Origin: a virus
Lineage: Duplodnaviria > Heunggongvirae > Uroviricota > Caudoviricetes
Virus record (IMG/VR): IMGVR_UViG_3300012943_000030
Coordinates: 43,698-107,697 of that record
Direction: 5' to 3' (one strand)
DNA length: 64,000 nt
Part shown: positions 2,980-43,746 of the stretch, piece after piece
How positions within the stretch are numbered: the stretch's first letter is position 1
Layout of the letters: every line of letters begins with the position of its first letter
Translations under genes and position numbers: made by a program
The notes under the pieces: generated by a model
What the model was told of the DNA's origin: nothing
The model's input: only the letters and a program-made list of their open reading frames with translations
Database searches by the model: none

Positions 2980-3057
2980 GGCTACGTGGCAGAGAGGCCC
3001 ATTGCGACACTCTCATAAGGTGTAAAGTCGTCGGTTCGATTCCGACCGTAGCCACCA
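2980..3057 (+). tRNA. tRNA-Met/Ile2(CAT)
   Basis: Acceptor GGCTACG/CGTAGCC, anticodon stem ACACT/GGTGT with loop CTCATAA, T-arm GTCGG-TTCGATT-CCGAC, CCA. Confidence 0.6.
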
Positions 3058-3720: not shown

Positions 3721-3799
3721 GGAGTGTTAGCATAGTCCGGCTTAATGCGCTACCCTGTCACGGTAGAGACCACGGGTTCAAATCCCGTACACTCCGCCA
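3721..3799 (+). tRNA. tRNA-Asp(GTC) (second copy by eye)
   Basis: Perfect acceptor GGAGTGT/ACACTCC, anticodon stem CTACC/GGTAG with loop CTGTCAC, T-arm ACGGG-TTCAAAT-CCCGT, CCA. Confidence 0.55.
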
Positions 3800-3807
3800 A
3801 TTTCAAT

Positions 3808-3885
3808 GCCTCTGTAGTTCAGCCCGGATAGAACGTCTCGCTACGAACGAGAAGGTCGTGGGTTCAAATCCTGCCAGGGGTGCCA
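3808..3885 (+). tRNA. tRNA-Arg(ACG)
   Basis: Acceptor GCCTCTG/CAGGGGT (with GU pairs), TAGTTCAGCCCGGATAGAAC D-arm, anticodon stem TCTCG/CGAGA with loop CTACGAA, T-loop TTCAAAT, CCA. Confidence 0.6.
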
Positions 3886-4646: not shown

Positions 4647-4720
4647 AGAGGATTGGTGTAGTGGTAGCGCTGCGGTCTCCAAAACCGCCGGCTGGGGTTC
4701 GATTCCCTAATCCTCTGCCA
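4647..4720 (+). tRNA. tRNA-Trp(CCA)
   Basis: Perfect acceptor AGAGGAT/ATCCTCT, anticodon stem GCGGT/ACCGC with loop CTCCAAA, T-arm TGGGG-TTCGATT-CCCTA, discriminator G, CCA. Confidence 0.7.
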
Positions 4721-6843: not shown

Positions 6844-7347
6844 TTGTTGAAGGTACTACACTATCCTGATAAGGCACTGAAGCTTCGAAGCCAGGAGATC
6901 GTTGATGGTCTCACTGATGCTTCGAAGGCGATCATCGCTGAGATGATCCTCCTCATGCGCACCGAGAACGGTGTTGGGCTGTCAGCAATTCAGGTGGGCT
7001 ACCCCTTCCGCATCTTCATCATGGACACGTCGTCCATGAATGGAAAGGTCGTTGGCAAGATCTTCGTCAATCCCGAGATTGTTGAGGCGGCCACCGAGAT
7101 CCTTCCATACAACGAAGGCTGCTTGAGCTTCCCTGGCCTGTTCGCCGTGGTGAAGCGCCCAGCCTGGGTGAAGGTGAAGGCACGCGATGACAACTTTGAA
7201 GAATTCGAACTCACGCTGGACGGCATCGACGCGGTCTGCTTTCAGCATGAACTTGATCACCTGAACGGAATTACGTTCTACGATCACTTGAGCCAGGTCA
7301 AGAAGGAATGGCTCAAGAAGAAGATGAAGAAACTCGGGCTCGCTTAG
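6844..7347 (+). CDS. def: peptide deformylase
   Basis: GVGLSAIQV, EGCLSFPG and QHELDHLNG motifs match the three conserved PDF motifs. 167 aa. Confidence 0.85.
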   Translation: MLKVLHYPDKALKLRSQEIVDGLTDASKAIIAEMILLMRTENGVGLSAIQVGYPFRIFIMDTSSMNGKVVGKIFVNPEIVEAATEILPYNEGCLSFPGLFAVVKRPAWVKVKARDDNFEEFELTLDGIDAVCFQHELDHLNGITFYDHLSQVKKEWLKKKMKKLGLA

Positions 7348-7470: not shown

Positions 7471-7674
7471 ATGAACACCGGCGAACTTCTTTCCAAGCAG
7501 AGCACCACCGCGGCCAAGATCGCCAATGATCTTGTCACGCACATGCTCAAGCACCTCGCCCCTGAGGATGTAGAGGCCGGCGTCGAGAAGGCAATCAGCC
7601 AGCTCGCCAACAACATCCGTGCTGCAGCGAAGAACGAGCTCAAGTTCCGCCGCATGAAGAGCGCAGCGGGGTAG
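7471..7674 (+). CDS. hypothetical protein
   Basis: 67-aa ORF after the late-promoter motif. Confidence 0.35.
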   Translation: MNTGELLSKQSTTAAKIANDLVTHMLKHLAPEDVEAGVEKAISQLANNIRAAAKNELKFRRMKSAAG

Positions 7675-7891
7675 ACCAGCTTCAGCTGATCGATGACCGC
7701 GTCGCCGAGCTAGGTGAGCGGCTCACTCAAGTTCAAGCTGAGGTACGCGAGCTCAAGCGGCTCAAGCTCTCACCATCACCAGGCCTGCTCGCGCAGGTGC
7801 AAGCAATTTACAACAAGCAAGAAGCATTGGCCCAATCGCGGGAAATGTGGATTGCCATTCTCAGAGAATGTCCACGACTAAAGGAGCGATC

Positions 7892-8566
7892 ATGAAGCGC
7901 ATCATTGAGATCCGTTCCGCCGAGGGCGGAGACGACGCCAAGCTCTTCGTAAGAGACCTGGCCAACGCATACGTAAGGTACCTTCTCAAGGCGGGCTGAA
8001 AGCACCGGGTCGCCTACCCACGCCTGGGAGAAGCCACCATTGAGGTAGAAGGCGATGCCCTCCAGCAACTTGATGGAGAGGCCGGTGGCCACCGCATTCA
8101 GCGCATCCCACCAACTGAGCGAAGAGGACGAGTACACTCGTCCACCATCACCGTTGCCGTCATCAACCCGCTCGTGCAGAGGCGCGTCGAGTTCAATGAC
8201 CGCGACTTCAGGGTGGAATGGTACTCAGGCTCAGGAGCGGGTGGACAGCACCGCAACAAGCACCAAAATTCTTGCCGCATCACCCACGTTCCAAGTGGGG
8301 TCATCATCACGGCCCAAACGCGAAGTCGACAGAGCTCTCTGCAGCAGGCGAAGGACGAGATCCTACGCAGGTTGAATGAGTTCCAGTCGCGTCAGGTTCT
8401 TGATATAATGGCCGCAGATAGGAAGCAGCAGGTGGGCACCGGTGAACGCGCCGACAAGATCCGCACCTACCGCTTCCAAGACAACATCGTCAAGGACCAC
8501 CGCACAGAGCGTCAGGCCCCAGCCGATGCAGTTCTTGCAGGCAACATCCAGCTCCTGTGGAGATAA
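7892..8566 (+). CDS. RF1/PrfH-like peptide chain release factor homologue (domains 2-4, PxT-type PPT, GGQ) with in-frame TGA at 7997-7999
   Basis: RBS AAGGAG then ATG 7892. IRSAEGGDDAKLF..YVRY matches RF domain 2. After the in-frame TGA the same frame continues open with GGHRIQRIPPTERRGRVHSSTITVAV (cf. RF1 [26 protein letters not shown]), SGSGAGGQHRNKHQNSCRITHVPSGV and DRxxKIRTYxF to the stop at 8566. The TGA aligns with the conserved Trp of RF1 (RYAEARRW). Confidence 0.6.
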
Positions 8567-16427: not shown

Positions 16428-16640
16428 ATGAAAGTTCACGTTACCTACAAGACCCCTGACGCTGTTCACTTCGGCGTTGTTGACGCCCTCGCCGATGTAG
16501 AGTGTACTCCTGAAGAACGGCGCACAGACTACGAGGACCTCAATGAGGCCGTACTCGCCATACTCGGTTCTGACGAGTACCTCACCGTCATCATCGACAC
16601 TGAAGAGAAGTCGGTCACCTTCAAGAAACCTCACCGATGA
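16428..16640 (+). CDS. hypothetical protein
   Basis: 70-aa acidic ORF ending at ATGA with DHFR. Confidence 0.4.
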   Translation: MKVHVTYKTPDAVHFGVVDALADVECTPEERRTDYEDLNEAVLAILGSDEYLTVIIDTEEKSVTFKKPHR

Positions 16641-17176
16641 AACTCAACATCATCGCCGCCGTTGCGCTCAATGGTGTCATCGGCGACAGCAGAACCAACA
16701 CGATCCCTTGGCACCTGCCCGCGGATCTGTTCAACTTCAAGCGCGTCACAGCTGAGAAGACCGTCGTCATGGGTCGCAGGACCTTTGAGAGCATTGGTCG
16801 TCCGCTGCCAAAGCGCAAGAACATCGTCATCACCTCTGATCCTCAGTTCAAGTGGCGCCACAAGGTCGCAACATTCACCACCCTCGCTGATGCCTTGGCC
16901 CAAGAAGAAGGCGAGGTGTTCGTCATCGGTGGCCAGAAGATCTACGAAGAGGCCTGCTCACTTCGGCCTGACGTGTTCTACATCACGGTCGTCAATGCCC
17001 AACCAGAAGGTGACGTCAAGTTTCCATATGATGGGTGGCAGTTCAAGGGAGGCATCTTCATGCCGATTGGCTGCTCAGCGCTCTACTACAACCGCTACAC
17101 ATCTCCTGAGCTGAACGAAAATGGCTACAGCTACCAATTTACCGAGTTCTCAAAAGATCCTCCGCCTACACCTTGA
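16637..17176 (+). CDS. folA: dihydrofolate reductase
   Basis: IAAVALNGVIG...PWHLPADLFNFKRVT...VMGRRTFESIGRPLPKRKN closely matches E. coli FolA. Confidence 0.85.
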   Translation: MKLNIIAAVALNGVIGDSRTNTIPWHLPADLFNFKRVTAEKTVVMGRRTFESIGRPLPKRKNIVITSDPQFKWRHKVATFTTLADALAQEEGEVFVIGGQKIYEEACSLRPDVFYITVVNAQPEGDVKFPYDGWQFKGGIFMPIGCSALYYNRYTSPELNENGYSYQFTEFSKDPPPTP

Positions 17177-17708
17177 CACGGAGTTCACTGACTTCGCCAA
17201 GGCAGACATGATCTCAATCGGCCTAGCCGCGTCTACCGACTTGACGTTCTATGCTGAGAACCTGGACTTTGATCAATCGCTGTCATCTGTTTGGGTCATT
17301 CAGAACATCTATCCCCTGCTCGACCATGTCAAGTATGGCATGAAGCGTTCCACGCTTGTGGCTCGACTTTGGGAGTGGCTTGATGAGCTGCCGTCAGAGA
17401 AGTTTGCAGTCGTCGTTGACTACCCTACTGACTGGCTCCTCTTCAAAGCCCATGGTCTCGCTGACCATCCAAAGTTTAGCCATGTTGAGTTTATATTCGA
17501 CAACATCTCGCGCTTCGCACGGCAGTCGCTTGCTGAAGGGATGGCGCTCGATGAGGTTACCGCCGTCTATCAGCGCGGTGTTGAGACCTTCCAGAAAGCG
17601 CTCGAGGATTACTTTTCGGACCCAGCAGTGGTCCGACATCACGCGCTTCATGACGCCATTGGCAACATGAAAGCGTACACTAAGCTGACCATCGACTACG
17701 GGATCTAA
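17121..17708 (+). CDS. DEDDh (DnaQ-like) 3'-5' exonuclease
   Basis: LHLDTEFTD (exo I, DxE) and HHALHDAIGN (exo III, Hx4D). Start uncertain, overlaps the DHFR 3' end. Confidence 0.5.
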   Translation: MATATNLPSSQKILRLHLDTEFTDFAKADMISIGLAASTDLTFYAENLDFDQSLSSVWVIQNIYPLLDHVKYGMKRSTLVARLWEWLDELPSEKFAVVVDYPTDWLLFKAHGLADHPKFSHVEFIFDNISRFARQSLAEGMALDEVTAVYQRGVETFQKALEDYFSDPAVVRHHALHDAIGNMKAYTKLTIDYGI

Positions 17709-43425: not shown

Positions 43426-43746
43426 ATGAAGACAGCTCGAAAGCGCCGGTCGGACAGGGTTCACCTGATCTACGTTCTCACGAACACCATCACTGGTGAA
43501 GAGTACGTTGGACTGACGGTACGGCTTGATCGTTCAGGCAAGAAATCACTTGCTGCCCGTTGGGCTCGCCACGTCGGCCGCGCCCTCCTTCACAACAAAG
43601 ACTGGAAGCTGTGCGCGTCGATACGTGAGCACGGCCGATCGTCGTTCACTGCCAGAATTTTGCAGTTCGTTCACGGCAAAGCAGAGGCCTATGCCGTTGA
43701 AACGCGTTTGAGAAACACCGGCCTCTTCAAGCTCAATACCAACTGA
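43426..43746 (+). CDS. GIY-YIG nuclease-domain protein
   Basis: RVHLIYVLTN..GEEYVGLT..R....H pattern. The ATG lies only about 7 nt after the -10 box (leaderless, or start further in). Confidence 0.5.
   Translation: MKTARKRRSDRVHLIYVLTNTITGEEYVGLTVRLDRSGKKSLAARWARHVGRALLHNKDWKLCASIREHGRSSFTARILQFVHGKAEAYAVETRLRNTGLFKLNTN

Follow-up and report, generated by a model that had tools for sequence, protein, structure and literature searches.

A conserved in-frame UGA as a candidate readthrough gate in an RF1-type release factor gene of phages

The window, as we call the whole stretch of 64,000 nucleotides (nt) analysed here, covers positions 43,698 to 107,697 of the IMG/VR record IMGVR_UViG_3300012943_000030, a virus of the class Caudoviricetes. 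It encodes a class-I release factor (RF) gene of the RF1 type, which has no region for domain 1 and is interrupted at codon 36 by an in-frame TGA. Frame 0 is unbroken across this codon, the sole in-frame TGA of the gene: the local sequence reads GCG GGC TGA AAG and the open reading frame (ORF) goes on in frame 0. An earlier note on this DNA, made from the sequence alone, had delimited the frame from the ATG at 7892 to position 8566 with a single TGA at 7997-7999, and it was right in every coordinate. The gene is located directly 3' of an array of 29 tRNA genes, def (peptide deformylase) and tRNA-Val, and its neighbours include DUF6794, a gene of Fe-S biogenesis and NUDIX, so that the translation module proposed for this region is borne out by the array and def standing beside the RF gene.

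The window protein belongs to the bacterial class-I release factor superfamily. Both of its Pfam domains were matched above the gathering threshold, PCRF (PF03462) with an E-value of 3e-22 and 79.7 bits (cutoff 24) and RF-1 (PF00472) with an E-value of 4e-19 and 69.1 bits (cutoff 35). Among NCBIfam models the best match was prfA (NF001859, 196 bits against a cutoff of 400; TIGR00019, 195 against 423), spanning only positions ~107 to 340 of the profile, i.e., domains 2-4. The prfB model (TIGR00020) gave 117 bits against a cutoff of 370, and PrfH (TIGR03072) 53 bits against 167, with only 36 bits for the solved PrfH chain. All the RF1, RF2 and PrfH scores lie under the equivalog cutoffs because only the region of domains 2-4 is present. 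The best PDB matches found with phmmer were RF1 chains, and in the alignments to the solved RF1 of T. maritima, S. mutans and E. coli the TGA falls exactly on the Trp of the GW/RW motif, in agreement with what had been noticed from the sequence before. The AlphaFold model of a 65%-identical family member, with a mean predicted local distance difference test (pLDDT) score of 88, superposes on ribosome-bound T. thermophilus RF1 with a template modelling (TM) score of 0.92 and a root-mean-square deviation of 2.0 Å, as compared with a TM score of ~0.82 for RF2; in this model one continuous RF1 domain 2 runs across residue 36.

The full-length architecture of prfA-type RF1 was not found, domain 1 being absent; the PxT tripeptide and an RF1-like fold of domains 2-4 are both present. 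Neither mark of prfB, an SPF tripeptide or a score above its cutoff, was detected, the tripeptide being PPT, which also occurs in the full-length RF1 of Saccharibacteria and other Patescibacteria. A GGAG-type Shine-Dalgarno (SD) sequence precedes the start in nearly all of the 80 relatives inspected (see below), and since the SD-preceded ATG lies at the same place in relatives, the absence of domain 1 is evidently a trait of the family. The matches to domains 2-4 and the SD-preceded ATG at domain 2 uphold the earlier view of an RF1-type factor devoid of domain 1; the label 'PrfH-like' has to be dropped, in view of a score far below the PrfH cutoff and of the retained PxT loop. The family signature is GGxD, as opposed to GGxE in every canonical RF1 examined (GGDEA or GGEEA in solved chains and in Patescibacteria RF1). 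The Glu of GGxE contacts the stop codon in solved RF1 and RF2 complexes, and Asp in its place could change codon specificity. The RF1 profile as top match, PPT in RF1 of Patescibacteria and RF1 as the best structural match suggest that specificity of the RF1 type is to be favoured.

A scan of IMG/VR yielded 254 relatives, of which, as in each scan, only the best 80 loci were inspected. These are 54-85% identical and derive mostly from contigs of many metagenomes, several of them 320-520 kb in size. Codon 36 is TGA in 81 of 81 sequences (the window and the best 80), and never TGG, TAA or TAG; 73 of these sequences are distinct over the 228 nt compared around the TGA. In a wider classification of 164 loci the same type of TGA was found at the window's codon in 89. 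By this comparison, the conservation of the TGA is far beyond chance. The base that follows is A in 56 sequences, G in 18, C in 7 and T in none (n = 81), and local conservation is confined to GGY-UGA-(A/G/C)NN-NNC-CGC. A neighbour-joining tree places the window-type sequences in one block of 81 distinct proteins beside frameshifting lineages.

Across the 73 distinct sequences, the 35 codons upstream of the TGA (ORF1) have a mean pairwise amino-acid identity of 72%, and their pairwise nucleotide identity is 78% at codon positions 1 and 2 and 45% at position 3. Conserved residues carry on in frame 0 downstream of the TGA, where the frame stays open for 185-196 codons in all members. The 72% amino-acid against 45% third-position identity, together with the in-frame conservation downstream, indicates translation of the two halves in a single frame, with purifying selection acting on each. 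In the clade alignment the TGA is not followed by any conserved start codon, the next codons being ACT, GCT, AAG, CTC or ATC, and the first in-frame start after it in the window is GTG 8174, initiation at which would remove most of the codon-recognition domain. Both hallmarks of programmed readthrough, a conserved in-frame stop and same-frame constraint on either side of it, are seen in these alignments, and we regard the codon as a genuine site of recoding that is strongly conserved within a phage RF family of distinctive character. The earlier note had left several explanations side by side and had advised a comparison of UGG with UGA in orthologues. It came out for UGA throughout the best 80 of the 254 relatives, and an invariant TGA across a large diverged clade strongly favours the option of programmed readthrough or regulation; recent pseudogenisation and sequencing error are effectively excluded by this invariance and by selection on both halves.

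The terminator of the RF gene itself is TAA in 76 of 81 distinct members of the clade (94%) and TGA in only 3, whereas the terminators of the frameshifting sister clade are unbiased (TGA 18, TAA 20 and TAG 5). The use of TAA at the end of the gene would fit expression under conditions in which UGA is leaky.

Table 1 Features of the release factor locus, in window coordinates
Feature	Position	Strand	Remarks
Shine-Dalgarno sequence AAGGAG	7881..7886	+	5 nt 5' of ATG; read directly
Domain-1-less RF1-like class-I release factor gene, 224 codons including TGA	7892..8566	+	Pfam, NCBIfam and PDB matches
Start codon ATG	7892-7894	+	read directly
ORF1, first 35 codons, MKRIIEIRSAEGGDDAKLFVRDLANAYVRYLLKAG, with start of codon-recognition domain	7892..7996	+	purifying selection indicated
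AEGGDDA motif, family signature GGxD	7919..7939	+	Asp invariant in family alignments
In-frame TGA, codon 36, putative recoding site	7997..7999	+	aligned with conserved Trp of RF1
ORF2, 188 codons, same frame; rest of domain 2 and domains 3-4	8000..8563	+	
PPT tripeptide (PxT codon-recognition loop, RF1 type), within RIPPTE	8108..8116	+	read directly
GGQ catalytic motif	8240..8248	+	read directly; invariant in two family alignments
TAA terminator of RF gene	8564..8566	+	read directly
Phage tRNA-Trp(CCA), candidate near-cognate UGA decoder	4647..4720	+	ARAGORN
def (peptide deformylase)	6844-7347		near RF gene

The same TGA is present in bacterial assemblies (loci L168 and L170-L176) of Jiella, Thalassospira, Gemmobacter, Rhodovibrio, Sphingomonas and Sphingobium, alphaproteobacterial genera that use the standard genetic code. 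Cultured carriers are Jiella sp. LLJ827, Thalassospira xianhensis MCCC 1A02616, Gemmobacter caeni DSM 21823 and Rhodovibrio sodomensis DSM 9895. In Gemmobacter caeni the RF gene lies in a phage-like tRNA array, in which we also observed ORFs resembling Pth2 and Thg1, by eye only. The gene context in Jiella and Thalassospira is not obviously phage, and no RtcB was found in it. Among cultured and GenBank phages no close DNA relatives were detected, the only match being to the tRNA-Val. Protein databases hide the recoding, because contigs of ~1 kb were translated with code 4, which introduces a false Trp, and long contigs were split into a 35-amino-acid (aa) ORF and a fragment of 130-184 aa; where the DNA behind database proteins called with W was checked, it had TGA in three of three cases.

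Elsewhere in the window TGA is a normal stop, as had been stated before: it terminates 31 (54%) of 57 non-overlapping ORFs of at least 120 aa, followed by TAA with 21 and TAG with 5. Translation with code 11 fills the window densely with long ORFs, and in one upstream gene family of the relatives the same end residue is followed by TGA in some phages and by TAA in others. These patterns give no indication of a genome-wide reassignment of TGA (code 4). Of the stops in bacteria, UGA leaks most, and tRNA-Trp reads it at low frequency (PMC7918605). Since the homologues have Trp at this position and UGA is read by tRNA-Trp, the near-cognate tRNA-Trp(CCA) would be the most economical, and is the most likely, decoder. 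The tRNA-Trp of the window lacks A24 of the Hirsh type and has an ordinary U11:G24 pair; of 60 relatives scanned, 11 have a tRNA-Trp(CCA) gene no more than 3 kb away from the RF gene.

A SECIS (selenocysteine insertion sequence) element or a stimulatory hairpin is unlikely, because RNAalifold detected 0 conserved pairs in the 100 nt 3' of the UGA, the fold energy at the window site was ordinary in comparison with shuffled controls (z = -0.72) and Rfam returned nothing but tRNA-Val. Selenocysteine was considered as the inserted residue and rejected: besides the lack of any SECIS-like structure, ARAGORN found no tRNA-Sec in the window, and homologues have Trp, not Cys, at the position.

The gate is not limited to the clade of the window. 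Distant homologues share the short architecture, PPT and the invariant Asp in GGxD, and we have classified 164 family loci by gate type. A same-frame TGA was found in 100 of them (89 at the window's codon) and a same-frame TAG in one; 48 need a +1 frameshift at the homologous codon, five have two or more in-frame TGAs and ten are uninterrupted. In the frameshifting sister clade (L081, L084, L088, L091 and loci within L094-L167) the homologous codon is occupied by a cassette, CGGAGG-nnn-CUU-stop-C, with the spacing known from prfB. All 43 distinct cassettes have CUU; 35 of them use TGA as the stop, five TAG and three TAA, and C comes after the stop in 33. An example is CGG AGG GGU CUU UGA C in L081 (GenBank LR745208.1, about 1585-1600). 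We found no prior description of this sister-clade cassette in the literature. At the window site itself the elements of the prfB cassette, namely an SD-like sequence, a 3-nt spacer, CUU UGA C and an ORF continuing in the +1 frame, were not found.

Low-GC huge phages represent a further variant: LR756504.1 (L082, TGA at 1624) and LR756502.1 (L083, TGA at 1630) have one in-frame TGA, at other codons, and some of the further low-GC contigs (L115, L123, L127, L128 and L164 were examined with these) have two. The long ORFs neighbouring these RF genes contain no in-frame TGAs; the phages do not look like code-4 phages and their TGAs seem to be specific to the RF gene. No covariation of the tripeptide with the identity of the internal stop was seen in the family, PPT going together with TGA, TAG and TAA. 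Judged by its distribution, the stop-codon gate has been invented or remodelled several times in this gene family, and this repetition argues for a regulatory function tied to termination and not for an accident tolerated at one Trp codon.

The region upstream of the RF gene contains an ORF, open from 7566, which ends in an ATGA overlap with the RF start at 7892-7895 and has no ATG, GTG or TTG before 7797. From position 7680 on it had been described as similar to RF domain 1. That proposal does not hold: the ORF alone has no Pfam PCRF match, BLASTP against E. coli RF1 gave E = 4, and as a detached domain 1 (7566/7680-7895) it was rejected, its fusion to the RF adding only 6 bits to the PCRF match. 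It is conserved only in the nearest relative, L001; the TTG that opens the homologue there corresponds to CCG in the window, and unrelated genes occupy this place in other relatives. The ORF could reflect decay, a frameshift or a start codon outside the canonical set. It is preceded by a 67-aa ORF (7471-7674), absent from L001, in a frame from which a -1 shift would be needed.

The tRNA array has its own peculiarities. Several calls are unusually long, namely Asn with 91 nt (2003-2093), Met with 78 nt (2980-3057), Asp with 79 nt and its anticodon at position 37 (3721-3799) and Arg with 78 nt (3808-3885). The array also contains many duplicates, with four genes for Lys, three for Gln and five for Arg. 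Introns, extended loops or miscalls could underlie these features. In two relatives a tmRNA gene was found directly downstream of the RF gene (L019, 3660-4123; L032, 4183-4604), which points to a module of termination and ribosome rescue within tRNA arrays. At another place in the window, two ORFs of 150 and 195 aa (16662-17114 and 17121-17708) lie in the same frame with TGA and two codons between them and are overlapped by ORF 16637-17176 in another frame; the pair may be another readthrough candidate or just two adjacent genes.

As to the function of the conserved UGA, the reading that we favour, with a probability of roughly 0.6, is programmed readthrough at codon 36 that gates the phage RF1-type factor, probably by insertion of Trp through tRNA-Trp(CCA). 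The sequences show the anatomy of the gene, an invariant TGA with purifying selection to either side, the ordinary use of TGA as a stop in these phages, the lack of a UCA tRNA and of a downstream RNA structure in the DNA examined, and comparable devices occupying that codon in sister clades. We infer that readthrough occurs, and with it any efficiency, that Trp is inserted, that the factor reads UAA and UAG and that a feedback exists. Most ribosomes would stop at codon 36 by means of host RF2 and release a 35-residue peptide, and a minority would insert an amino acid, most likely Trp delivered by the near-cognate tRNA-Trp(CCA), which is also phage-encoded, to produce the 224-residue factor. 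The fraction of readthrough would be set by competition at the UGA between termination of the RF2 type and tRNA-Trp. The UGA would then act as a gate linking the level of the phage factor to how much UGA termination the infected cell can sustain, by the logic of the prfB UGA but with readthrough in place of the +1 frameshift. If RF2 were limiting or overloaded, as it might be with a phage in which UGA closes 54% of the long ORFs, readthrough would increase and more of the RF1-type factor would be made; the additional factor would take over termination at UAA (and UAG) and free RF2 for UGA.

Several points weigh against this reading. A factor of the RF1 type does not itself read UGA, which would make the proposed feedback an indirect one, and GGxD at the codon-recognition residue leaves the specificity of the factor uncertain. 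The +4 context is not distinctive, as A is also the commonest base after true TGA terminators in the window (14 of 31), and with no stimulatory element the expected readthrough would perhaps amount to only a few percent. The stop of the sister clade is sometimes TAG or TAA, which sensing of host RF2 alone leaves unexplained. The tRNA searches bear on the reading by their scope: ARAGORN found no tRNA with a UCA anticodon among 29 tRNAs in a window of 64 kb out of a genome of at least 198 kb, and a collection-wide pattern for Trp-like UCA anticodon arms hit no RF contig among the matches listed (at least 120, all unrelated).

The main rival of the indirect loop, which we consider possible but doubtful, is direct autoregulation, in which the factor itself, being RF2-like or omnipotent, reads UGA and ends its own synthesis at codon 36, as prfB does, but by way of readthrough; the family GGxD next to the PPT loop might be the cause. 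Asp is invariant at this residue, the one that contacts the stop codon in RF structures, and a UGA-reading activity would be useful to a phage in which 54% of long ORFs end in TGA. The internal stop is overwhelmingly UGA, in 100 readthrough-type and 39 frameshift-type loci, mirroring prfB, where the stop corresponds to the specificity of the factor itself (PMC12421855). The sister clade has the exact cassette of the prfB type, and a factor reading all three stops would explain why TAG and TAA variants occur with the same PPT loop. Yet RF1, not RF2, is clearly the closer match of the family in both sequence and structure, the tripeptide begins with the Pro of RF1 instead of the Ser of RF2, and PPT is found in ordinary full-length RF1 of Patescibacteria. 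A dedicated suppressor tRNA(UCA) encoded outside the window, on whose expression synthesis of the factor would depend as in TGA-recoded phages, appears improbable. Phages that recode stops do carry suppressor tRNAs together with RF genes (10.1101/2021.08.26.457843), the RF gene studied here lies inside a large tRNA array, and the window is only part of the genome. The search for a UGA-decoding tRNA, suggested by the earlier note, nevertheless gave none with a UCA anticodon: the window, with its 29 tRNAs, lacks one, as do 60 related loci that include many arrays, and the listed matches to the anticodon-arm pattern likewise included no RF contig. Moreover, TGA is the commonest true terminator and alternates with TAA at the ends of homologous genes, and an efficient suppressor would damage most phage proteins because TGA is used so frequently.

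It is very unlikely that the gene specifies a split factor, i.e., the 35-residue peptide and a separately initiated C-terminal protein, perhaps made by termination-reinitiation, with or without assembly of the two. On long contigs a 35-aa ORF and an ORF of 130-184 aa are indeed what gene callers predict, but no start codon is conserved after the TGA and the GTG available in the window would cost most of the codon-recognition domain. Frame 0 is kept in all members, which would not be required of separate genes, in the sister clade the same protein is continued only after a +1 shift, and in the model residue 36 lies within one continuous RF1 domain 2. Explanations by artefact or decay (an error of sequencing or assembly, a recent pseudogene, code 4, or selenocysteine) are refuted in practice by the comparative data. 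TGA is one transition away from TGG, and the ENA contig ERZ27256383 k141_234680 (198 kb) is identical to the window and so provides no independent support; the same TGA nonetheless recurs in isolate genomes and in ~100 contigs that come independently from many metagenomes, with purifying selection on both halves. Read with code 11, the DNA is densely filled with long ORFs that mostly end in TGA, and selenocysteine is contradicted by the absence of a SECIS-like structure and of tRNA-Sec and by Trp, not Cys, in the homologues.

The closest known system is prfB. It is likewise a class-I RF gene with an early in-frame stop, almost always UGA, that is conserved over a large clade, and coupling of factor synthesis to termination efficiency is the likely common purpose; the sister clade of the phage family even has the prfB cassette with the same spacing (SD-like CGGAGG, 3 nt, CUU UGA C). 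In contrast to prfB, the window gene continues in frame 0, which implies readthrough, and has neither a CUU slippery codon nor a conserved SD-like stimulator. Its site lies in domain 2, at codon 36, whereas that of E. coli prfB is in domain 1, at codon 26, and its RF1-like (PxT) factor, unlike the product of prfB, would on present evidence not recognise its own gating codon. A version with same-frame UGA readthrough was once proposed, with no example known in bacterial RF2 genes and no known RF1 counterpart (Atkins et al. 2016, PMC5009743). No programmed recoding was found in prfA (Prince et al. 2025, PMC12421855), and the same work describes RF overexpression as harmful and prfB as autoregulated through its UGA.

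Among viruses, the class-I RF gene of Mimivirus and Megavirus has internal stops that are passed by readthrough and frameshifting, read as autoregulation in the bacterial style (Jeudy et al. 2012, PMC3521657). This factor is an eRF1/aRF1 homologue from a eukaryotic virus, with both events in one gene, and represents the only virus-encoded precedent. The phage family differs in having a bacterial-type RF1 homologue without domain 1 and in using, depending on the clade, either readthrough or a +1 frameshift at a shared codon. In phage Qbeta, low-frequency reading of UGA by tRNA-Trp yields the A1 protein, a longer product that the phage requires. In Qbeta a functional coat protein is complete at the stop, and a C-terminal extension is added by readthrough in a fixed proportion; the UGA of the window gene, by comparison, interrupts a single folded domain at a conserved Trp codon, the peptide that ends there has only 35 residues and the role is probably regulatory.

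The code-change modules of stop-recoded phages combine a suppressor tRNA with RF1 or RF2 and an aminoacyl-tRNA synthetase (Borges et al., 10.1101/2021.08.26.457843). They resemble the window in having an RF1-type gene near tRNAs and an in-frame TGA to be read as sense. The phages with such modules recode TGA in late genes across the genome, possess a UCA suppressor and keep the code-change genes themselves in the standard code, whereas in the window phage TGA serves as the principal terminator, no suppressor turned up and recoding was seen in no gene other than the RF gene. PrfH (RFH) also lacks domain 1 and keeps a domain-2-like module and GGQ (Burroughs & Aravind 2019, PMC6514570). It has no PxT/SPF tripeptide and works with RtcB in the rescue of damaged ribosomes; the window protein, by contrast, has kept PxT, has no RtcB seen next to its gene and scores below the PrfH cutoff. 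Surveys of huge phages and of stop-recoded phages mention RF1/RF2 genes, though not recoding within them, and a review of RF evolution does not mention phages. In the literature on phage RF recoding we found no published stop-codon switch of this kind in a bacterial-type RF gene.

Recoding in RF genes is a textbook case of translational autoregulation, seen previously only in the +1 frameshift of prfB and in one giant-virus eRF1 gene. The phage family appears to supply the missing version with same-frame readthrough, in ~100 diverged sequences, and its sister clade uses the prfB cassette independently. Synthesis of these factors would nearly always be gated, in one of three ways: readthrough of a same-frame UGA, the type of the window, a +1 frameshift of the prfB type at the same codon, or in-frame UGAs elsewhere. 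A bolder view, possible but doubtful, is that jumbo phages and some alphaproteobacterial genomes encode a distinct domain-1-less GGxD/PPT family of RFs, which is gated by its own stop and itself reads UGA or all three stops. If the factor does read UGA, the system would be the first natural readthrough version of RF autoregulation, which has long been hypothesised, and would provide a factor of altered specificity by which phages control termination. If our favoured interpretation, programmed readthrough at codon 36, holds, the family would offer a natural system in which UGA readthrough is tuned without an RNA stimulator, and would show how termination capacity is sensed and adjusted by phages during takeover. 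It would also raise the question of unusual stop specificity in a domain-1-less factor with a changed codon-contact residue, a question that the cultured carriers Gemmobacter caeni DSM 21823 and Thalassospira xianhensis MCCC 1A02616 make directly testable.

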